From Candidatus Kaiserbacteria bacterium (GTDB taxonomy: Bacteria > Patescibacteriota > Minisyncoccia > Phycocordibacterales > UBA918), in NCBI GenBank assembly GCA_020428815.1, contig JAGQMC010000048.1, forward strand, positions 1 to 62,136: a DNA stretch of 62,136 nucleotides, given 5' to 3'. The notes under the pieces are model-generated. The model searched no databases, had not been told where the DNA came from, and saw only the letters and a list, made by a program, of their open reading frames with translations. A program made the translations under genes and the position numbers. Within the stretch, counting starts at the first letter, position 1, and every line of letters starts with the position of its first letter. This document shows, piece by piece, positions 4,993 through 62,136 of the stretch.

Positions 4993-5904
4993 CTATTTAC
5001 TATGAAACTTTTTGTGCACTTCGCGCAGATGTTTATCGGTGACATGCGTATACACCTGAGTGGTGTTGATACTGGCATGACCGAGTAGTGCTTGTACACT
5101 TCTGATGTCAGCACCATTTTGTAGCAAGTCTGTTGCGAAGCTGTGACGGATGACGTGGGGAGTTACTTTGCGCGTAATGCCAGCCTGCGCAGCGTATTTT
5201 TTTATCAGCCTCTGCACGGCGCGAGGAGAAAGACGTAAGTCACCGCCGTCATTCATCTTTCTTCCGTAACGAACGAAAAGTGCGTCGTCCATGTCTTTGC
5301 GATTTTTTAAATAATCTTGAAGCGCACTGCGGGCTCCGTCAGAAATAAACACCACGCGAATTTTGTCTCCTTTACCACGGACGGAAAATTCATCGCGCGT
5401 TAAATCTACATCATCAATCGACAGAGAGCAGAGTTCTGAGATACGCAGTCCAGTAGAGAAGAGGAGTTCCAAAATTGCTTTGTCTCTTTTTCCTTCCAGT
5501 TGCTTTGTGTTGGGTGCCGTCATCAGTCGCTTTAGTTCTTTGGAAGAAATCAAATCAAGTGACCGATCAGGTACTTTCGCCAACTCAATTAACTCTGGTG
5601 AAATTGCTTCAATTTCTAATTTACGTAAATACTTTAAAAATGCTCGAAGGGCAATCAAATAATAATTTTGCGTGCGACGCTTCATAGGCTCCATCCGACT
5701 ACCAACTTTTGTACCTGGCTGTCGATTGAGAAAGAGTCTAAATTCACGCACGTTTTTTTCTGTAATATCTTTAGGTTTCACAGCTTTGGCAAACTCAAAA
5801 TAACGCTCGAGGTAGCGATCATAGTTTTCTACCGTCTTTACACTCCTACCCCTTTCGATTTCTAGGTACTCTAAAAATTGTGTTTTAAGTTCCACTAAGT
5901 TCAT
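4993..5904 (-). CDS. xerC: tyrosine recombinase, XerC/XerD family
   Basis: 303 aa with an N-terminal SAM-like core-binding region. C-terminal catalytic motifs: GLRISEL, HVIRHSFATDLL, LLGHASINTTQVYTHV. Confidence 0.85.
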   Translation of the reverse strand: MNLVELKTQFLEYLEIERGRSVKTVENYDRYLERYFEFAKAVKPKDITEKNVREFRLFLNRQPGTKVGSRMEPMKRRTQNYYLIALRAFLKYLRKLEIEAISPELIELAKVPDRSLDLISSKELKRLMTAPNTKQLEGKRDKAILELLFSTGLRISELCSLSIDDVDLTRDEFSVRGKGDKIRVVFISDGARSALQDYLKNRKDMDDALFVRYGRKMNDGGDLRLSPRAVQRLIKKYAAQAGITRKVTPHVIRHSFATDLLQNGADIRSVQALLGHASINTTQVYTHVTDKHLREVHKKFHSK

Positions 5905-7957: not shown

Positions 7958-10081
7958 ATGAAAACACAATCTTTCTCTTTGGAGCTAGCCGGCAAAACTT
8001 TAACGGCTGAATTTAATGACTTAACATCACAGGCCAACGGTTCGGTTTTATTGCGATGTGGTGAAACAACCATCTTGGTGACAGCTGTAATGGGTGAGCG
8101 AGAGAACAGTGGTATGAATTACTTTCCACTATCAGTAGAATTTGAAGAAAAATTCTACGCTGCCGGAGCTATCCTTGGTAATCGTTTTCAGCGACGAGAG
8201 GGGCGTCCGAGTGACGAGGCTGTACTCTCAGCTCGAATCGTAGATCGTACCATCAGACCACTTTTTAACCAGCACCTCAGGCGTGATGTGCAGGTAGTGA
8301 TTACCGTCCTAGCCATGGGCGAAGACGATCCGGATGTACTGGGGGTAATTGGTGCTTCGCTAGCTTTAGCGGTATCTGATATTCCGTGGCGAGGTCCAGT
8401 TGGAGCGGTGCGGATTGGCCGAACCACCGAATCAAGTGAGGTGGTAATTAACCCAACCTATAAACAACGAGCAGAAAATTTATTAGACTTTGAAGTTTTA
8501 GCGTGTGGTAAAGACAATACTATAAACATGATTGAAACAGCGGCTGATGAAGTAAGTGAATCTGACATCGCCGCTATTCTAGAAACATCAATCGCCGTCC
8601 ATCAAAAATTAGAAGCCTGGCAAAAAGAAATTATTGCCGCTGTTGGTAAAGAAAAGCAAACTGAACCTGATGCAACCGTCTCACCAACTGCTCAAGAAAT
8701 TTTTGATACTCAGTTCAAGCAAAAACTGAAAGAAACCATTTTCAGTAACCGAGCTGGGAAGTCTCATATATATGAAATCAAGGCGGAGTTTTTAACCGCA
8801 TTAGAGGAAGCAGAAATTGAAGACAAAATGGCAGCTGACTTCTTTGAGGATATGATAGACGCTGAACTTCACCGAGGAGCTATCGAAGACAACCAGCGAG
8901 CTGATGGTCGGAAGATGGATGAGGTGAGAGAATTATTTGCTAAGGCCGGTGGAGTATCTCCAGTCTTACACGGTTCAGGAATTTTCTACCGTGGCGGCAC
9001 TCACATTTTTTCCGCACTCACTCTGGGTGGACCTGAAGCCGCTCAAATTATCGACACCATTGAAGAGCAAGATACCAAAAAACACTTCATGCACCACTAC
9101 AACTTCCCACCATTTTCAGTGGGAGAAACTGGTCGCATTGGTGGTTTCAATCGTCGTATGATTGGACATGGTGCTTTAGCAGAAAAAGCTTTAGTACCAG
9201 TGATTCCTTCCCGAGATGAATTTCCTTATACCATCCGTCTAGTGTCAGAGACTCTCTCCAGTAACGGCTCTAGTTCAATGGGTTCAGTCTGTGGTTCCAC
9301 TTTAGCATTAATGGATGGTGGCGTACCGATTAAGAGACCGGTGGCCGGCATCGCGTCTGGTGTCATGATTGTGGGCGATCGATATGCTCTACTGACTGAT
9401 ATCCAAGGACCAGAAGATGAATTTGGAGACATGGACTTTAAAGTAGCAGGTACGACTGAAGGAGTGACCGCTATTCAAATGGACGTAAAGGTTGACGGCG
9501 TACCAATGCATATTTTGGTTGAAGCTTTGGAGAAAGCCCGATTGGCAAGATTACATATATTAGAGACTATCACAGCTGAAATTGCTGAACCACGAGCACA
9601 CATCTCGCCGCGTGCTCCAGAAATTATTACCTTGAATATTTTGCCAGAGCAAATTGGACTAGTAATTGGTAGTGGTGGTAAGACCATAAATGGCATTAAA
9701 GAAGTCACTGGAGTAGAAGAGATTAGTATTGAAGAAGACGGCAGTATCTTTATTACCGGCCAAAACGGTACCGCCCAATTAGCTGCTGATAAAATATCTG
9801 CTCTCACCAGAATCTACGAGGTGGGTGAAAAAACTAATGCTACCATCACTCGCCTAGCTGATTTTGGCGCCTTTGCAAAACTGGATGACATAAATGAGGG
9901 TCTCATTCATATTTCTGAAATTGCACCATTTAGAATTGAATCCATGAACGGCGTCCTTGCTGAAGGTGAAGTGGTGCCGGTGGAGGTAATTAAGGTAGCT
10001 GAAGGTAAAATTGGTCTATCAATCAAAAAAGCCGACCCTGACTTTGCTGAGAATAAGGGCTTAAAGCCTGCCAATAAGTAA
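7958..10081 (+). CDS. pnp: polynucleotide phosphorylase
   Basis: Two RNase PH-like halves (RxDGR at ADGRKMDEVR; FMHHYNFPPFSVGE; GSSSMGSVCGSTLALMDGGVP; DMDFKVAGT), then KH (GSGGKTINGIKE) and S1 (FGAFAKL..GLIHISE) domains. The ATG at 7958 is preferred over the TTG at 7931. Confidence 0.95.
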   Translation: MKTQSFSLELAGKTLTAEFNDLTSQANGSVLLRCGETTILVTAVMGERENSGMNYFPLSVEFEEKFYAAGAILGNRFQRREGRPSDEAVLSARIVDRTIRPLFNQHLRRDVQVVITVLAMGEDDPDVLGVIGASLALAVSDIPWRGPVGAVRIGRTTESSEVVINPTYKQRAENLLDFEVLACGKDNTINMIETAADEVSESDIAAILETSIAVHQKLEAWQKEIIAAVGKEKQTEPDATVSPTAQEIFDTQFKQKLKETIFSNRAGKSHIYEIKAEFLTALEEAEIEDKMAADFFEDMIDAELHRGAIEDNQRADGRKMDEVRELFAKAGGVSPVLHGSGIFYRGGTHIFSALTLGGPEAAQIIDTIEEQDTKKHFMHHYNFPPFSVGETGRIGGFNRRMIGHGALAEKALVPVIPSRDEFPYTIRLVSETLSSNGSSSMGSVCGSTLALMDGGVPIKRPVAGIASGVMIVGDRYALLTDIQGPEDEFGDMDFKVAGTTEGVTAIQMDVKVDGVPMHILVEALEKARLARLHILETITAEIAEPRAHISPRAPEIITLNILPEQIGLVIGSGGKTINGIKEVTGVEEISIEEDGSIFITGQNGTAQLAADKISALTRIYEVGEKTNATITRLADFGAFAKLDDINEGLIHISEIAPFRIESMNGVLAEGEVVPVEVIKVAEGKIGLSIKKADPDFAENKGLKPANK

Positions 10082-57782: not shown

Positions 57783-58574
57783 TTATTGTTTATTTGGTAT
57801 TGGTTTTGGTGGTAATTGTGGTGTTCTATATTCAGTTGATGATGCTCTGGGGTTTTTGTGATCGCTTATCTTAAGTGGTGGTGACATAAAGTTGTCGGGG
57901 CGAGGCTTGATACCAAAGGCTGTTATCACGCTCTCATCTCTCTCACCAAAAACTATCAGGTATTCGCCAACAATAATAGGGGTTTCTCGTGGCATTCTTG
58001 TTTTCTCAGTAATCTTTATAGTTATCGATTCACCCTGTTCTGATGTTAGGACTAGATCGCTGCCGCTTATTTCAGTTATCTGACCAACCACCAGACCGTC
58101 TGGTCGTTGATTCATTGCGTTACGATAGAGCGGGGAGAAGACTGGCACATCATGTCTTTCTGTAAAATGACCAATCCGTTGGTGGACTGTGGTTTGTTGA
58201 ATTAGCCATGATCCCAACAAGGATAATAATATTAAACTCAACATGGTGTAGAGCAATGGTTGCTTGAAGCTGAAAGAATATTGGGTAACCAAGAGGTAAA
58301 GTAGAATCAGAAAGATAAAGCTAGTGCCAATTAGCAACCAAGGTGAAGACATGATAAAGAAACTGATGCCTCGGAAACCAAAACCAAAAGCAAACACAGA
58401 TCCACTTTGATGGAAAATGAATAACACAAAGCTGATTAGATACAGCACCAAGAGTACAGTAATTAATAAGCCAAAAAACAATAATCCAGTGCGGAGAACA
58501 AAATGCCATTTTGGCTTCATGTCAATTTCGCCAGATTTAATTTTATTTAAGATGTTGTTCTGTAGATTTTTCAT
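57783..58574 (-). CDS. polytopic membrane protein, putative anti-sigma factor (by position)
   Basis: Overlaps the upstream ECF sigma gene by 4 nt. A short cytoplasmic N-terminus is followed by 5-6 TM helices and an extracytoplasmic C-domain. No zf-HC2 motif was seen. Confidence 0.4.
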   Translation of the reverse strand: MKNLQNNILNKIKSGEIDMKPKWHFVLRTGLLFFGLLITVLLVLYLISFVLFIFHQSGSVFAFGFGFRGISFFIMSSPWLLIGTSFIFLILLYLLVTQYSFSFKQPLLYTMLSLILLSLLGSWLIQQTTVHQRIGHFTERHDVPVFSPLYRNAMNQRPDGLVVGQITEISGSDLVLTSEQGESITIKITEKTRMPRETPIIVGEYLIVFGERDESVITAFGIKPRPDNFMSPPLKISDHKNPRASSTEYRTPQLPPKPIPNKQ

Positions 58575-59128
58575 AACGGTTTTGTTTGCTGATAAAGTTT
58601 TCTTAGATTGGTTCTAGCACGATTCAGGCGTACCCCAACAGTAGTGGTTGGTATTTGGAGTACATCACTGATTTCTTGATAACTAAATGATTCATAATAA
58701 TGAAGTAGAATAACCTCACGATACTTAGCCGGCAGTTGTTTAATCAGTTTGTCCATTTCTGCTACAGTCTCTTCTGTCAATACTTGTCCATCAGCTGTTT
58801 CTTTAGCTGGTAAAAATGGCAGAATTGTGTCAGCAGCAAAGAGACCAAAGCCAGCACGTTCTTTGCGCTTTAATTCGTTGACGAACGTGTTATGGGCTAT
58901 GCGATAAATCCAAGGAGAAAAACGCTGATTGGTATCAAAAGCCTGAATATTGGTATAGGTTTTTATAAACACATCTTGTACCAAGTCATCTATTTCGTGA
59001 TTGGTGTTCAAAAATTTATTAGCGTAGCGTTTAAGCTTGGCTTCAAAACGAGCAACCAATTCCCCGAATGCTTCTGTGTCTCCCGCTTGTACCGAGTTTA
59101 CTATCTCTTCATCTGATAATTCAGTCAT
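58571..59128 (-). CDS. ECF-type RNA polymerase sigma-70 factor
   Basis: Region 2 (DLVQDVFIKTY ... FSPWIYRIAHNTFVNELRK-like) and region 4 (YREVILLHYYESFSYQEISDVLQIPTTTVGVRLNRAR). Confidence 0.9.
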   Translation of the reverse strand: MTELSDEEIVNSVQAGDTEAFGELVARFEAKLKRYANKFLNTNHEIDDLVQDVFIKTYTNIQAFDTNQRFSPWIYRIAHNTFVNELKRKERAGFGLFAADTILPFLPAKETADGQVLTEETVAEMDKLIKQLPAKYREVILLHYYESFSYQEISDVLQIPTTTVGVRLNRARTNLRKLYQQTKPL

Positions 59129-59307: not shown

Positions 59308-59838
59308 CTAATTAGTTTTTTGACCAAATCTTCCATTTCTAGCATTCTCACGATGACCATGATCTCCTTGATCAAAGCCATTATGTCTAATTGGGTGTTC
59401 AATACCCAGCTCAGCCATTAATTCAACTGCTTCCTCTCGGTCTCCAGACTTCATTAGCTCGTGGGCTGTTTGGAAGGTTTCAAAGTCTGCTTTTGAGTCA
59501 ATTGCTTCAGCTAGTGGGGTATTTTCGATAGCCGTTAGAAAAGCCTCATAATCATCATTAGCAAGAGCAGTTTGGACAGCCGTTTGACGTTCTTCTTGTT
59601 GAGTGTGTAGAGCTGTGCGAATTTCTCTCATCTTTTCTTCATTAATTCCAACCTCCTCAATCATTTCTTTGGCTTTTGTTTGTGCTTCCTCGATAATTTC
59701 TCGAGATTCTACTAGGGCACTTATCTGATCATCTGTCAGGTCCACATCAATACTTTCAAGAAAGTCAGTATTAAAGGCGCTCACTGCCGTAGCCGTGACT
59801 GCAAAAGCGGCGACAGGGATTATTAATTGTTTAATCAT
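59308..59838 (-). CDS. secreted all-helical protein, Spy/CpxP-like (LTxxQ motif), His-rich tail
   Basis: Signal peptide MIKQLIIPVAAFAVTATAVSA, then DLTDDQISAL and an E/A/Q-rich helical sequence. C-terminus HPIRHNGFDQGDHGHRE. Confidence 0.4.
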   Translation of the reverse strand: MIKQLIIPVAAFAVTATAVSAFNTDFLESIDVDLTDDQISALVESREIIEEAQTKAKEMIEEVGINEEKMREIRTALHTQQEERQTAVQTALANDDYEAFLTAIENTPLAEAIDSKADFETFQTAHELMKSGDREEAVELMAELGIEHPIRHNGFDQGDHGHRENARNGRFGQKTN

Positions 59839-60152
59839 TATTTTTTTAATGTACTAAGTAACGGGTAATTTTTCAGCTTTGCAAAGTGTATATGAGGTAG
59901 TTTTTTGTAAACGGGCCATTGTGTCGGATTAGACTAATGCCTACACTCTGTACCAGAGTTCCGTTGTTAAACGCAACTGCCTCATTCTCTATTACAATTT
60001 AAGGAGTGTATTATTACAAATCAATTACCATTCGCCCTGTTTGATATCCAATCAATAAAATAACCATCTAATGGCAGTATTTAATGTAAGTGGTTTGTCT
60101 GGGAATTGAACCGTCTCGCGCGCCGGGGACTCTTCGTTGGGGAACGAAAAAC

Positions 60153-60166
60153 AGCTAGCACGAGAC
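60153..60166 (-). repeat. inverted partial copy (GTCTCGTGCTAGCT) of the 27-nt boundary motif
   Basis: Plus strand agctagcacgagac. It lies within a hairpin-rich 60110-60217 segment (ttcgtt-gggg-aacgaa; gcttc-aaatc-gaagc; acagctagc/gctagctgt). Confidence 0.8.
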
Positions 60167-60317
60167 GCTTCAAATCGAAGCTCTAACAGCTAGCTGTTCT
60201 TGGCGGGCGGTCTCGAGTCAGAACCATATTACCGTCAAGCTAGGCTTGGTCGATTGGCTAATTTTAAGAATGGCTACAAATACGGGTCTCGAGCGCAAAA
60301 ATGTATAATGTACTTAT

Positions 60318-61409
60318 ATGAAATCCTATCGAAGATTTGAATCTGAACAAGAACTGAAAGAACACATTAGAGACAACTTTGAAACTTATGTACATCTGCT
60401 TAAAGAAAAAATTGCACCACTTGAGGAGAACTACCGCAGAAGCTACAAACAAGGGGTAGTGGGGATTTTTCTGGTAATAGCTAGCATAGTTACTTGGTAT
60501 ATTCACCCTCCGATACTTATCCCACTTAGCCTGCTTTTTTTGTATTTTGGAATCAAAATGATCAGATCGGCTTTACCCGTGGTGTACAGTTTCAATAAAG
60601 CGCTTAATCAAGCTTCATACTCCCTTGTGTTTAAACTGTTTGATCTTGAAGCTGAGTACTTTGAACCCTCAGAAGAAGTGACACCTAAAAAATTAGATTA
60701 CCTGCCCAAAAGGCTCAGCAGTATTAAATATGTATTTCCTAAAAAGTTTTATCATGACACCTTGACACCGACTGTTTCTGGGAAAGTTGGAAAGCTTCTA
60801 GATCATTCTATGCTTATGACCGAGCCTAGAAATACTATCCAGGTAGATGACGCTTTTACATCGAAATTTTCTAACAGGGAAATGTATATTGCGGAATTAG
60901 ACGTTAAACATATTGAGAGAAGTAGACGTAGAGTTTTCGTAAAGAATATTTTCTCTGGCTTATTTGTAGCGCTAGAATTACCACGTACTCTTGAAGGCAA
61001 AACTTTCATTTCTACTGAGCTTGGCTTACTTTTTCAAGATATTGGAGGTCAAGTATTTGATCCCGATGCGGTAGAAACCGAACTAGAATGGAATGATTTT
61101 GAAAAATTATTAGAAGTTAAAACGACCAATCCAATTGAAGCGCGCTACATTCTAACGCCAGATTTTATGGAAGATCTATTCATTTGGTGGCGAGACAGAA
61201 AACAACTTGGAGACAAGAAACTCCAAGTTCGTCTGTCCTTTGTTGGTAATCACATGTATGTATTGTTTCCTGACAAAAGAACCCGAGTTGGAAACGCGGC
61301 ACTTCGGGTGCAGGCTCACGAGACACAAAAACACCTTGAGTCAATTGCATTACCATTAATGCATATTCTTAACTTAATAGACGATGTAGAACATCGCATT
61401 AAGTCATAA
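60318..61409 (+). CDS. DUF3137-like membrane protein
   Basis: 363 aa. Coiled N-terminus, two TM helices (VVGIFLVIASIVTWY; ILIPLSLLFLYFGI), then ...ARYILTPDFMEDL...VRLSFVGNHMYVLFPDK, the pattern I associate with DUF3137. TATAAT (60304-60309) lies 8 nt upstream of the ATG. Confidence 0.55.
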   Translation: MKSYRRFESEQELKEHIRDNFETYVHLLKEKIAPLEENYRRSYKQGVVGIFLVIASIVTWYIHPPILIPLSLLFLYFGIKMIRSALPVVYSFNKALNQASYSLVFKLFDLEAEYFEPSEEVTPKKLDYLPKRLSSIKYVFPKKFYHDTLTPTVSGKVGKLLDHSMLMTEPRNTIQVDDAFTSKFSNREMYIAELDVKHIERSRRRVFVKNIFSGLFVALELPRTLEGKTFISTELGLLFQDIGGQVFDPDAVETELEWNDFEKLLEVKTTNPIEARYILTPDFMEDLFIWWRDRKQLGDKKLQVRLSFVGNHMYVLFPDKRTRVGNAALRVQAHETQKHLESIALPLMHILNLIDDVEHRIKS

Positions 61410-61415
61410 AAACAG

Positions 61416-61442
61416 GTGTCTCGTGCTAGCTCTAAACGGCGG
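61416..61442 (+). repeat. 27-nt boundary motif, copy B
   Basis: GTGTCTCGTGCTAGCTCTAAACGGCGG, 6 nt after the DUF3137-like stop. It differs at 1 nt from 62000-62026. Confidence 0.9.
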
Positions 61443-61640
61443 AGAGGGATTCGGTCACCTTCACACCAATATTTTCTTCAGCTCCGCTTCAAAATATTAT
61501 GTTACGCGACCCCGTCGCTTCTGTGTGGACGATAAAGCATTCTCGTCCGGCTTCGCCAGAAGCTCTTTTCGAATCCCTTACTCTCTGGCAATAGCAAACC
61601 CTACTTGACCGTTTCAGCTATATTTTAAATTCATTTAATA
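61416..61640 (+). ncRNA. structured non-coding element bounded by GTGTCTCG motifs (class unknown)
   Basis: Long-range pairs are aaacgg (61434-61439) / ccgttt (61609-61614) and gggattcg (61446-61453) / cgaatccc (61570-61577). Internal hairpins are 61468-61475/61491-61498, 61506-61510/61514-61518 and 61528-61532/61543-61547. Confidence 0.3.
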
Positions 61641-61654
61641 GTGTCTCGGGCACT

Positions 61655-61981
61655 TTAGCTATTTAACTCAGAATCAATTCTTTGATCTAGTTCATTCATA
61701 GTTTTCAAAAATGATTCTTTGAGATCAACATCATACTTATCAGCAATAACGATTATTGACCACAAGCAATCTGCTAATTCGTGGGCGATTTTATTCTTAG
61801 AATCATCAATGTTCCTAACGCCATCTTCTGCCATTGTCAGCTTGACCAAATCACCTACATCGCCAACAAAACCCCTAACGAGGTCTTCTCGAGACCACTC
61901 TTTAGTTCCTTTATGTTTCTCAAGATTTGAGTATTTCTCACGAACCTCTATGGCACGCTTTTGTATATCTGAAAATTCCAT
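61655..61981 (-). CDS. MazG-like nucleoside triphosphate pyrophosphohydrolase (small all-alpha type)
   Basis: 108 aa: ...LVRGFVGDVGDLVKL...IAHELADCLWSIIVIADKYDVDLKESF, the EExxE/D-type MazG helix pattern. TGaTACAAT lies 6 nt upstream of the ATG. Confidence 0.75.
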   Translation of the reverse strand: MEFSDIQKRAIEVREKYSNLEKHKGTKEWSREDLVRGFVGDVGDLVKLTMAEDGVRNIDDSKNKIAHELADCLWSIIVIADKYDVDLKESFLKTMNELDQRIDSELNS

Positions 61982-61999
61982 ATTTTCATTGTATCACTA

Positions 62000-62026
62000 G
62001 TGTCTCGTACTAGCTCTAAACGGCGG
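62000..62026 (+). repeat. 27-nt boundary motif, copy C
   Basis: GTGTCTCGTACTAGCTCTAAACGGCGG. On the minus strand it overlaps the -35/spacer region of the MazG-like gene promoter. Confidence 0.9.
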
Positions 62027-62136
62027 TGCTTTTTGAACGAAGTTCGAACGCTCTACGAACAAAATCCGCAAGAGTTTGACTAATAACCCGCTCAGCCGCG
62101 CCCTCGGCTCCACTCCGTTCCGCCGACCGAAACAAA

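Follow-up and report, generated by a model that had tools for sequence, protein, structure and literature searches.

Organization of the array

The last 2.3 kb of the window (the whole 62,136-nt stretch of DNA that was analysed) carries a DUF3137 gene, a gene for a MazG-like pyrophosphohydrolase and a series of non-coding elements, designated M1, M2, M3 and M5. The features are given below by position, strand and nature, with a slash marking a junction here and throughout.

60113-60120, minus: extra CGCGAGAC box, 3' of the terminal hairpin, with no relatives in the other loci
60147-60201, minus: diverged terminal M1-like hairpin with T run (AACAGCTAGC...GCTAGCTGTTTTT); inverted repeats, fold -28.4 kcal/mol
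60203-60294, minus: full M3, right end of cassette 2; nhmmer E 2e-19, pattern match with 0 expected by chance
60302-60309, plus: extended -10 box TGTATAAT, 8 nt ahead of the DUF3137 ATG
60318-61409, plus: DUF3137 gene, 363 aa (PF11335, E 1e-16), between the M1 of Joint A and the full M3, antisense to the array
61416-61442, minus: Joint A; CCGCC (61442-61438) is the M2 3' end, followed by the M1 left end GTTTAGAGCTAGCACGAGAC(AC); junction 61439/61438
61438-61585, minus: M2 structured unit (covariance model R1, 32.4 bits, E 4e-6, minus strand only)
61593-61651, minus: truncated M3, model positions 1-60 of 90, directly after the MazG stop codon (nhmmer E 3e-6)
61655-61981, minus: MazG-like pyrophosphohydrolase gene, 108 aa, cargo of cassette 1 (borderline Pfam match PF03819)
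61988-61996, minus: extended -10 box TGATACAAT; leaderless-type start, with the ATG of the MazG-like gene 6 nt further on
62000-62026, minus: Joint B; CCGCC (62026-62022) ends the preceding unit, followed by the M1 left end GTTTAGAGCTAGTACGAGAC(AC); junction 62023/62022
62027-62136, minus: M5, 3' part of a GC-richer non-coding unit, ending ...GCACCGC/C

The 27-mer GTGTCTCGTGCTAGCTCTAAACGGCGG reported in the initial annotation occurs at 61416-61442 and again, with one mismatch (26 of 27 nt identical), at 62000-62026; both copies were confirmed, with none expected in 100 shuffles. Its 14-nt core GTCTCGTGCTAGCT lies at 61418-61431 (plus strand), at 62002-62015 (plus strand, one mismatch) and, inverted, at 60153-60166, against an expectation of 0.18. 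The inverted copy had been read as a site flanking the DUF3137 gene; the core is indeed present, but it forms the 3' arm (60166-60153) of the diverged terminal hairpin. On the minus strand the 27-mer reads ...CCGC/C-GTTTAGAGCTAG(C/T)ACGAGAC, and it is a composite joint, consisting of the tRNA-Ser-like 3' end of the preceding unit and the left end (M1) of the following cassette. The earlier view that the 27-mer as a whole sets the unit boundary therefore needs revision, as the true boundary is the ...CCGC/C junction inside it, at 61439/61438 and 62023/62022.

In the whole 62-kb window GTCTCGNG was found 11 times, where 2.7 occurrences were expected, and 8 of the 11 fall within the last 2.1 kb. 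The enrichment noted earlier was thus real, but the list of seven boxes was incomplete, having missed those at 61317 and 61888 (both minus strand), which lie within genes and are probably due to chance. The 9-bp direct repeat described at 60209 and 60285 (GGTCTCGAG) was recovered and marks both ends of one full M3 element, in which Box A (GCTCGAGACCC) is followed by CAAGC..GCTTGAC and GGTTCTGACTCGAGACCGCCCGC/. A supposed degenerate copy of the 27-mer at 61641-61660 exists, but is instead the Box A (GCCCGAGACACTAT) that starts the truncated M3, as aligned by eye to the M3 of locus L037. Similarly, the segment described as a single 225-nt non-coding structured unit is structured in its M2 part, but comprises two elements, the truncated M3 and M2, a mimic of the tRNA-Ser 3' end.

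The MazG-like protein scored just under the PF03819 cut-off (E 2.4e-4; 21.8 bits against 22 bits), and PADLOC gave no match for its gene. The promoter overlap claimed for this gene agrees with the -10 box TGATACAAT seen in the sequence; TAGTGATACAAT, as found here, also stands behind M1 in L014, ahead of an unrelated gene, and the relative L056 carries GATGTATAAT at the place equivalent to the DUF3137 -10 box. A simple promoter scan misses the extended -10 boxes because they have no -35.

The DUF3137 gene would be either cargo or an ancestral neighbor of tRNA-Ser(GGA) that became trapped; it is syntenic with tRNA-Ser(gga) in L026, L038, L059 and L061. It is antisense to the array and a conserved neighbor of tRNA-Ser(GGA) elsewhere, and "cassette 2" may represent a core gene that was trapped. 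An inversion of the DUF3137 segment, with the 14-nt inverted repeats at its ends, was considered and not adopted, because it would turn M3 antisense, an orientation never seen elsewhere.

As had been proposed, the window ends inside the next unit. Two contigs (L001 and L004) extend it identically, by 1.1 kb, so that the third unit is seen to comprise a flotillin/SPFH gene (59% GC), its terminator and M5; an M5-like unit is found at a different joint in L046. A further contig (L055) joins the same fragment to rpsS-rplV at 68% GC and is probably chimeric, and L053 likely represents the donor lineage, not this genome. No tRNA-Ser gene is present in the window, and extension of the array through related contigs reached none.

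Conserved modules at other loci

Exact-motif scans yielded 34 other loci, 15 from genomes (L008-L022) and 19 from metagenomes, with all named genome records being CPR/Patescibacteria MAGs except one labelled PVC group. A check suggested at the outset, of what the motif flanks elsewhere, returned gene units in these 34 loci, and tRNA-Ser lay upstream on the reverse strand of the motif in 28 of them. The anchor that the initial annotation had not seen is a tRNA-Ser-type attachment site. Among 33 non-redundant copies, M1 abuts an intact tRNA-Ser in 12, M2 or a partial tRNA-Ser 3' end in 14 (12 by automatic scoring; L010 and L012 by eye), M3 in 5 and other units in 2. CCGCC precedes every M1 copy but one, a diverged copy in L008 that reads ...CCGC/A, and M3/M1 tandem joints occur in five loci.

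M3 was absent from the search pattern that defined the loci. Nevertheless, nhmmer returned 29 M3 matches, 2 of them in the array of the window and the rest spread over 26 of the other 34 loci. Every match is on the tRNA-sense strand and lies immediately 3' of a stop codon; a pattern search confined M3 to this array within the 62-kb window. An alignment of 20 M3 sequences had a consensus fold energy of -1 kcal/mol and no covarying pair, and hence no conserved fold. The last bases of M3, compared by eye with the T-loop/acceptor end of tRNA-Ser, agree in register at 15 of 26, and near-exact partial copies of tRNA-Ser occur in M2 and in L017.

Canonical M1 consists of a hairpin of -23 to -28 kcal/mol and a T run, followed by TGnTATAAT and ATG; the hairpin has no counterpart at the M3 end. 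This terminator-type arrangement of hairpin and T run is also present in the terminal hairpin of the window and is absent from the two 27-mer copies, both of which lack the 3' arm of the canonical hairpin and fold weakly (-4.6 kcal/mol, and -7.9 kcal/mol for Joint B). Between loci, the genes enclosed by M1 and M3 are unrelated, as are the sequences 3' of M3. Pfam searches of the cargo identified SKI, NUDIX, S66, RNase III, DUF5677 and DUF6886 domains, with most proteins giving no match; one cargo gene encodes an OLD-family nuclease, and the MELEYKTE cargo family has its own variant right arm.

The structured unit M2

The closing helix of M2 pairs GAGAG..GGGATTCG with CGAATCCC..CTCTC, the second strand being the T-loop/T-stem/acceptor 3' strand of tRNA-Ser, and the unit ends in ...CTCTCCGC. 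M2 would supply the attachment site for cassette 2. A MAFFT alignment of all M2 types was poor, and the covariance model was built from one subtype instead; in this model 97% of cells are paired, double changes occur at 13 of 26 pairs, and the conserved fold is a three-way junction in which 8 of 10 sequences retain a G-U pair, with far lower scores for the reverse strand. Folds of single sequences share a common topology. Erosion of the acceptor strand is evident in L020 and the window copy, and M2 has no promoter of its own, sitting behind a terminator hairpin. ARAGORN detected no tmRNA, permuted tmRNA or tRNA in the 225-nt unit, only tRNAs reached the gathering score of Rfam 15 across the window and the 15 genome loci (L008-L022), and no relevant Rfam match was obtained at E<=10 over 59700-62136.

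Insertion point and strain differences

An empty and a filled site stand side by side in L017, the former reading CTCTCCGC/ACTGCAAGGG and the latter CTCTCCGC/CGTTTAGAGC..ORF..M3..GCCCGC/ACTGCAGGGG. Judged from this pair, the M1-gene-M3 unit was inserted exactly behind ...CTCTCCGC. Additionally, 12 M1 copies and 6 copies of an element bearing a large serine recombinase (LSR) are joined behind the ...CTCTCCGC of an intact tRNA-Ser. L010 and L017 have in common a 730-nt block of 73% identity that runs from the M1 start to the last M3 base, with flanks that are unrelated save for the tRNA-Ser gene and one gene found in both loci; the cassette thus appears to be a discrete unit.

Comparison of strains, as recommended earlier, revealed that same-species contigs differ at the joints: L046 has a different unit ahead of CCGCC/AAGAACAGC at 60206, and L003 diverges to the left of 61446. 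Contig ends fall at 60152 and 61649 (two contigs each), 60167, 61447, 61639 and 62007; because coverage was low, these positions are suggestive only.

Recombinases within and outside the window

The statement that no recombinase lies near the array was borne out. No LSR or Rep gene was detected by tblastn in the 62-kb window, a tyrosine-recombinase motif scan found none near any of the 34 loci, and the sole recombinase motif in the window belongs to an Xer-like gene (4993-5904), 54 kb from the array. Likewise, no M1-cargo-M3 cassette encodes a recombinase, according to Pfam searches of the cargo and tblastn of the window.

Elsewhere, a CPR-wide Rep-LSR element uses the same tRNA-Ser base as its insertion point and M3 as its terminal end. 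In L012 a Rep-LSR element (PF00239, PF07508, PF13408; PF23343) is found at an M3 end (..GACAGCCCGC/AGTTGACG..), and a 77%-identical relative (..cttactctccgc/agttgatg..) is located at an intact tRNA-Ser in 6 of 7 contigs; in L072 the relative's element has a full M3 as its end, with the native terminator behind it. The recombinase is encoded within the element in L012, L063 and L072 and not in the window units, which can therefore only be non-autonomous relatives of tRNA-targeting LSR elements. The LSR family has 2319 members at E<=1e-40, with source-given names that are CPR taxa, and one MAG contains both an M1 cassette (L010) and an LSR (L012). Because the left end of the LSR element, AGTTGATGAA, has only about 6 of 15 bases in common with M1 (CGTTTAGAGC), this enzyme may not accept M1. 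No excised circles or M3/M1 circle junctions were seen, and the M1 and M3 copies of the window may be fossils, given that the M1 copies lack the hairpin 3' arm and one M3 is truncated. The M1 20-mer and the M3 19-mer had no match in IMG/VR, and a phage attP was rejected on this basis.

Proposed explanation and alternatives

Given the tRNA-Ser-site cassette pattern at the other loci, the window holds two recombinase-less cassettes (MazG-like and DUF3137), one M2 unit and the beginning of a third. We consider it probable that the last 2.3 kb is part of an array of small, recombinase-less mobile cassettes behind tRNA-Ser-like ends, probably moved in trans by an LSR; the initial proposal of a cassette array bounded by recombination-type joints is in this respect upheld. 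Read on the minus strand, every unit would end in a tRNA-Ser 3'-end-like sequence (...CCGC), with the next unit joined exactly there. A cassette would begin with conserved M1 (C-GTTTAGAGCTAGCACGAGAC, with a 12-bp hairpin, a T run and an extended -10 promoter when the copy is full), continue with one to three cargo genes, and close with the conserved ~90-nt M3, whose last 26 nt would represent a degenerate tRNA T-loop/acceptor 3' end terminating in ...GCCCGC. Each insertion supplies a fresh ...CCGC end to which another unit can be added, and arrays can be built up in this way. The modules, their order, the linkage to tRNA-Ser, the insertion point, the unrelated cargo, and the site and right end held in common with LSR elements are documented by the comparisons above; we infer that LSRs move M1-type cassettes and that those of the window are still mobile. 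The enzyme most likely responsible would be the LSR of the CPR-wide Rep-LSR family, and the window cassettes would then be mobilised in trans, like ccr-less SCC elements in staphylococci.

A more ambitious version, which we put forward only tentatively and would not presently bet on, is that M1-cargo-M3 units are CPR-wide, integron-like cassettes, each a single gene with its promoter, which tRNA-Ser-specific LSRs acting in trans would capture and shuffle at the 3' ends of tRNA-Ser. In this version M2 would be a structured mimic of the tRNA-Ser 3' end that serves to multiply or display the attachment site, perhaps on single-stranded DNA acquired by competence, and the system would form a main route of accessory and defence gene exchange across CPR lineages.

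Turnover might instead proceed by homologous recombination after natural transformation, without a dedicated recombinase, if M1 (a terminator or insulator hairpin plus promoter) and M3 (a 3'-UTR element) were expression modules framing a variable gene slot behind tRNA-Ser. The canonical M1 layout of hairpin (-23 to -28 kcal/mol), T run, TGnTATAAT and ATG, the stop codon always directly before M3, the roughly 150 nt of conserved flank on each side and the reported natural competence of Saccharibacteria (PMC10633639) would all fit. We nonetheless regard this as unlikely: the L017 pair is an insertion without right-side homology, post-M3 sequences are unrelated between loci, M3 lacks a conserved fold and also terminates recombinase-bearing elements, the array orientation is kept even beside the antisense gene of the window, and either mobility or strong selection has to be invoked to account for M1 and M3 being conserved in MAGs from several CPR lineages. 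A tyrosine recombinase (host Xer-like or integron-like) acting at the joints, with the M1 palindrome as crossover and the repeated CGAGACACTA box flanking each gene as a single-gene exchange point, seems to us quite improbable. The palindrome does have 11-bp arms and a 6-7-bp spacer (e.g., CTAGCACGAGA-CACCTG-TCTCGTGCTAG; L014, L016, L030 and L037), many M1 copies consist of left arm and spacer only before diverging, the MELEYKTE family has its variant right arm, MazG contigs start or stop at /CGAGAC on both sides (62007; 61649 in two contigs; 61639), and the Xer-like gene is the only recombinase motif of the window. However, in the one clean empty/filled pair the junction falls at CCGC/, 9 nt ahead of the hairpin, M1 is commonly found without a hairpin, the motif scan found no such enzyme near any of the 34 loci, and the contig ends come from low-coverage assemblies.

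The compensatory changes and strand bias of the M2 three-way junction, its closing helix equivalent to the tRNA-Ser acceptor and T stem, and the likeness of canonical M1 to an intrinsic terminator would also suit an RNA role, in which the 27-mer is a tRNA-Ser 3' trailer or terminator, M2 a tRNA-Ser-like ncRNA (acceptor/T-arm minihelix plus inserted domain) processed or bound like a tRNA, and gene variability incidental. This too is a rather remote prospect, since M2 is promoterless behind a terminator hairpin, with an acceptor strand that has eroded in L020 and the window, Rfam gave no match, the two M1 copies of the window cannot form the hairpin, and M3, the unrelated cargo and LSR elements at the same base are left unexplained. 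The "operator-bounded" array of the initial annotation fared worst. GTCTCG boxes as operators of a DNA-binding regulator, for example one tied to the ECF sigma gene at 58571-59128, would account for the clustering of boxes by two promoters, but identical boxes occur at 34 loci with unrelated neighbor genes and at the ends of discrete insertions, no ECF -35/-10 spacing is present, and we give this reading almost no credence.

Other identities were rejected. An integron is contradicted by the lack of intI next to the array and of tyrosine-recombinase motifs in the 34 loci, and Pfam searches of 116 neighboring proteins gave no integrase among the top families listed; as for attC, M3 has no imperfect-hairpin fold and the joint GTTTAGA does not fit GTTRRRY. 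For IS200/IS605 (and PATE derivatives), the only Y1_Tnp is that of an incidental IS200 in L021, which has hairpins of its own. A CRISPR array or tracrRNA was dismissed, as there are two copies 584 nt apart with a gene between them and no cas-like family among the neighbors. The minus-strand GTTTAGAGCTAG recalls type II CRISPR repeats. Under the cassette explanation, the array represents tRNA-targeted integrative elements in a new form, and not an integron, operator array or CRISPR array.

Comparison with known systems

Large serine recombinases place the SCC elements of staphylococci at a single precise position, the 3' end of a conserved gene; with a copy of this site at the far end of each element, tandem arrays form, and recombinase-less elements (ccr-less pseudo-SCC) in the same arrays depend on an enzyme in trans. 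The CPR loci similarly have one exact insertion position, at the tRNA-Ser 3' end, and a distal site copy that allows tandem arrays. They differ in targeting the tRNA-Ser 3' end or its mimics rather than rlmH and in occurring in CPR bacteria. At 0.4-1.3 kb, their cassettes are much smaller than SCC elements, usually hold a single gene driven by its own promoter, and share a right end of ~90 nt and a left end of 20 nt; mobilisation in trans is putative here. Like integron cassettes, the units are short, mostly single-gene, in one orientation and at a fixed site, with highly diverse cargo and a conserved site of ~100-140 nt (M3+M1) between genes; unlike them, they have no intI, carry their own promoters, are anchored at a tRNA gene, have the core GTTTAGA instead of GTTRRRY, and have no attC-type hairpin, because M3 has no conserved fold. 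CIMEs, IMEX and pdif modules are also bounded by recombination sites, lack a recombinase and are moved by an enzyme encoded elsewhere, but the site and the probable enzyme class differ, and no Xer-type dif sequence is present. By analogy only, M2 recalls the tmRNA tRNA-like domain, acceptor/T-arm minihelices and the forked attP(+) hairpin of CTX phage. It pairs inverted and direct copies of the tRNA-Ser 3' end, which would give a stem like that of a minihelix or, if the DNA is single-stranded, an attachment-site copy in duplex form; in contrast to tRNA-like structures, its acceptor strand is not always kept.

Tycheposons of Prochlorococcus integrate at tRNA genes, including tRNA-Ser(TGA), combine a tyrosine or large serine recombinase with a replication module and cargo, and stack by successive integrations into islands with partial tRNAs and degenerate remnants (bioRxiv 10.1101/2020.12.28.424599). 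This description fits the CPR Rep-LSR elements of L012, L068 and L072. The window units differ in having no integrase or replication genes and in having conserved M1 and M3 ends, not random remnants; the lineage is also different, with no gene shown to be common.

Implications for CPR bacteria

CPR/Patescibacteria have tiny genomes in which few mobile elements have been described, and their gain of accessory genes is poorly known. A survey of Patescibacteria reported many genomic islands, with no mention of tRNA, integrase or recombinase in its main text (PMC12455944). A text search of 8.3 million papers found no occurrence of the motif strings, and a keyword search found no paper linking Patescibacteria, tRNA-Ser and integration, with broader searches giving nothing relevant. 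Our results suggest that cassettes behind serine-tRNA genes may be a means by which tiny CPR genomes swap accessory genes, with cargo that includes at least one known defence gene (the OLD nuclease) and many proteins without known function. Such a system would provide a simple marker (M1, M3 and M2) for flexible genes in CPR metagenomes and would explain assembly breaks at these loci. With Saccharibacteria now reported to be transformable (PMC10633639), it would also equip genetic tools for these organisms with a recombinase family and a naturally occurring, site-specific landing pad.

Occurrence of the 27-mer and Its Association with tRNA-Ser

The 27-mer GTGTCTCGTGCTAGCTCTAAACGGCGG lies at 61416-61442, with a second copy carrying one mismatch at 62000-62026, where chance predicts none; its 14-nt core recurs inverted at 60153-60166, and GTCTCGNG has 11 occurrences in the window where 2.7 are expected, 8 of them within the last 2.1 kb, in agreement with the repeats and enrichment described in the initial annotation. 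No Rfam family, tRNA or tmRNA was found in the array region of the window.

Wider searches for exact matches to the motif, covering a single genome for each species (15 loci) and metagenomes (19 more), yielded 34 other loci. The genome loci bear the names of Saccharibacteria, Nomurabacteria, Kaiserbacteria, Paceibacteria and Patescibacteria group MAGs, with one labelled PVC group. In 28 of the 34 loci a tRNA-Ser (anticodon GCT, TGA, GGA or ACT) precedes the reverse strand of the motif on the same strand, and the array of the window is therefore read on the minus strand. In the tRNA sense, the conserved left end of the cassette (M1) reads ...CTCTCCGC/C-GTTTAGAGCTAGCACGAGAC-ACTAT-GTTTCGTGCTAG-TTTTG(T)TATAAT (slash, joint), with the ATG 10-15 nt further on; it comprises a 12-bp hairpin and T run (-23 to -28 kcal/mol) and, after these, an extended -10 box. 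CCGCC directly precedes M1 in all but one of 33 non-redundant copies, 12 of which adjoin an intact tRNA-Ser, 14 an M2 unit (a structured mimic of the tRNA-Ser 3' end) or partial tRNA-Ser end, 5 the ~90-nt right end M3, and 2 other units. Both copies in the window lack the 3' arm of the hairpin and do not fold into one.

Features of the array, in the right-to-left order of the minus-strand reading
Beyond the window end: flotillin gene (59% GC), its terminator and M5, a GC-richer non-coding unit
62026-62000, minus-strand reading: joint B (end of previous unit, ...CCGC/C, plus M1 of the next)
61981-61655, minus: MazG-like gene, with TGATACAAT ahead of it
61651-61593, minus: truncated M3
61585-61438, minus: M2, a covariance-model match
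61442-61416, minus-strand reading: joint A (as joint B)
60318-61409, antisense to the array: DUF3137 gene, with its own TGTATAAT
60294-60203, minus: full M3
60201-60147, minus: diverged terminal hairpin and T run

This map recasts several repeats of the initial annotation, all of which are present: the supposed degenerate 27-mer copy is part of the truncated M3, the two GGTCTCGAG copies are the ends of the full M3, and the inverted core is the 3' arm of the diverged terminal hairpin. The window does end inside a further unit, as had been proposed. No tRNA-Ser gene was found in the 62-kb window, and extending the array with other contigs did not reach the anchor tRNA-Ser. Extended -10 boxes at 61988-61996 (-) and 60302-60309 (+) lie only 6-8 nt ahead of the ATG of the MazG-like and DUF3137 genes, a spacing which implies leaderless or near-leaderless mRNAs and which recurs behind M1 in most loci.

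The flotillin/SPFH gene, carried on two contigs that continue the array beyond the window end (L001, 1-916, and L004), has 59% GC in a 41% GC genome. A gene on a MAG contig of 60% GC (GCA_964568345.1; L053, 423-1808) matches it at 87% identity over 989 nt, a stretch that takes in the terminator; the flotillin gene looks like foreign DNA that the array captured recently. On an ENA contig (L055, 1-1811), probably a chimera created where the assembly graph branches, the same fragment is joined to a 68% GC rpsS-rplV as a fused ORF.

Modules and Cargo

The usual order across loci is tRNA-Ser, optional M4-M2, M1, gene(s) and M3, sometimes with more M1-gene-M3 units. The genes between M1 and M3 bear no relation from one locus to another; Pfam names few (shikimate-kinase-like, NUDIX, LD-carboxypeptidase, RNase III, DUF5677 and DUF6886) and PADLOC names one, an OLD nuclease. 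Locus L021 carries an IS200-type Y1 transposase, flanked by hairpins of its own, on the opposite strand and roughly 360-820 nt downstream from the M1 joint; the insertion appears incidental.

M3, which was absent from the search pattern that gathered the loci, directly follows the stop codon of the gene(s) downstream of M1 (GCTCGAGACACTAT...GGTCAAGC...CTTGAC...CACGGTTCTAACTCGAGACNGCCCGC). A profile search located 29 copies, two in the array of the window and the rest spread over 26 of the 34 other loci, all on the tRNA-sense strand. No conserved fold was found in M3; by eye, its last 26 nt are in register with the T-loop, T-stem and acceptor 3' end of tRNA-Ser (15/26). M2, a unit of 100-150 nt ending in ...CTCTCCGC, is closed by a helix of GAGAGTAAGGGATTCG paired with CGAATCCCTTACTCTC, the tRNA-Ser 3' strand. 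A covariance model built from five copies finds five more, including that of the window; in the alignment, whose fitting to the model biases it in favour of structure, 97% of cells are paired and compensatory changes occur in 13 of the 26 pairs, a result unmatched by any shuffle and far above slid controls. M2 may act as an RNA or as a folded DNA site. M4 is an A-run/T-run hairpin which follows tRNA-Ser where M1 does not. In L023 (after its M3, ~2500-2545, tRNA sense) and L027 (from tRNA-Ser to M2), the tRNA-like ...CCGCC end, the M4 hairpin and the start of M2, an inverted GGCGG(AGAG), make up a single long palindrome, so that two partners are conceivable for the 5' strand of M2: the preceding tRNA-like end or the 3' end of M2 itself.

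DUF3137 lies within the array but may be a trapped core gene: it is the sole antisense gene among more than 20 cassette genes, and its position near tRNA-Ser(GGA) is conserved in other CPR genomes. Five CPR loci (L026, L038, L059, L061, L062) share the order GroEL-LemA-M48 peptidase-tRNA-Ser-...-DUF3137-BipA, with either 0 or 4 genes inserted between tRNA-Ser(GGA) and DUF3137.

Insertion and Strain Variation

In locus L017, the tRNA-Ser 3' half and 109 nt of downstream sequence are present twice, the first copy reading CTCTCCGC/ACTGCAAGGG and the second CTCTCCGC/CGTTTAGAGC...ORF198...M3...GCCCGC/ACTGCAGGGG. The cargo of L017 is homologous to that of L010 over 730 nt (73% identity), from M1 to the final base of M3, with flanks unrelated except for the tRNA-Ser gene and one common gene elsewhere in the loci. 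These comparisons indicate that the M1-gene-M3 unit is a discrete insertion.

Contigs of the window's own species also differ at the joints: L046 has a different GC-rich unit ahead of CCGCC/AAGAACAGC at 60206, and in L003 the sequence to the left of 61446 is different. The end points of independent assemblies, 60152 (two contigs), 60167, 61447, 61649 (two contigs), 61639 and 62007, are all module edges; given the low coverage, they are no more than supportive. Contigs L043 and L048, from different samples, both stop at 59889, within non-coding sequence that separates the array from a 176-aa gene.

A Candidate Recombinase

The initial annotation saw no recombinase nearby, and both a large serine recombinase (LSR) and a rolling-circle Rep are indeed absent from the 62 kb; the only recombinase signature there is a Xer-like tyrosine recombinase (4993-5904, minus strand; HVIRH...LGH...Y motif). 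An LSR and a rolling-circle Rep are encoded by a ~6-kb element in L012, from the same MAG as L010; the element lies between an M3 end and M4-M2-M1, its LSR having Resolvase, Recombinase and Zn-ribbon domains and its joints reading ...GACAGCCCGC/AGTTGACGAATTGAGG and ...CACTGCCCGC/ACAGAC. The LSR family has 2319 members at E<=1e-40, with source-given names of CPR taxa. For a 77%-identical relative, 6 of 7 contigs have the 3' end of the recombinase gene joined to an intact tRNA-Ser (...cttactctccgc/agttgatgaaaagag), at the very base where M1 cassettes join. The longest of these contigs, L072, also covers the opposite end of the element, which is a full M3; the native terminator and a HIT gene come next. 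M3 is thus the right end that autonomous Rep-LSR elements carry. The M1-gene-M3 units are recombinase-less relatives of these elements with a different left end. Other family members are located in tRNA-Gln, and the junction cores are alike by eye (AC-N-GCCCGC joined to (C/A)GTT(T/G)A).

Beside tRNA-Gln, a ~145-nt insert differs between two samples (L069 versus L068, about 8520-8670); it contains part of a tRNA-Gln, copied, together with a core resembling the L012/L030 variant of M2, so mini-units like M2 are also present at other tRNAs that LSRs target. ARAGORN predicts tRNA-Ser genes whose anticodon is ACT, with A at position 34, in L008 (record 1962-2049), L015, L018, L025, L028, L036, L040 and L072-L078. 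Such an anticodon is unusual in bacteria; these predicted genes, often a few hundred bases from tRNA-Ser(GCT), are the target of elements carrying P0164, an LSR of this family.

Relation to Known Systems

No description of this type of cassette array turned up in the searchable literature: no paper there contains the motif strings, keyword searches for Patescibacteria, tRNA-Ser and integration returned no paper, and broader keyword searches returned nothing relevant. The main text of a survey of Patescibacteria genomic islands (PMC12455944) contains no mention of tRNA, integrase or recombinase. The array was judged to be neither an integron nor an IS200/605 derivative, and neither a CRISPR array nor the operator array that the initial annotation had entertained. 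Taken together, comparative genomics supports a real, non-random cassette array that appears to work in the manner of tRNA-targeted integrative elements and of composite islands of the SCC type.
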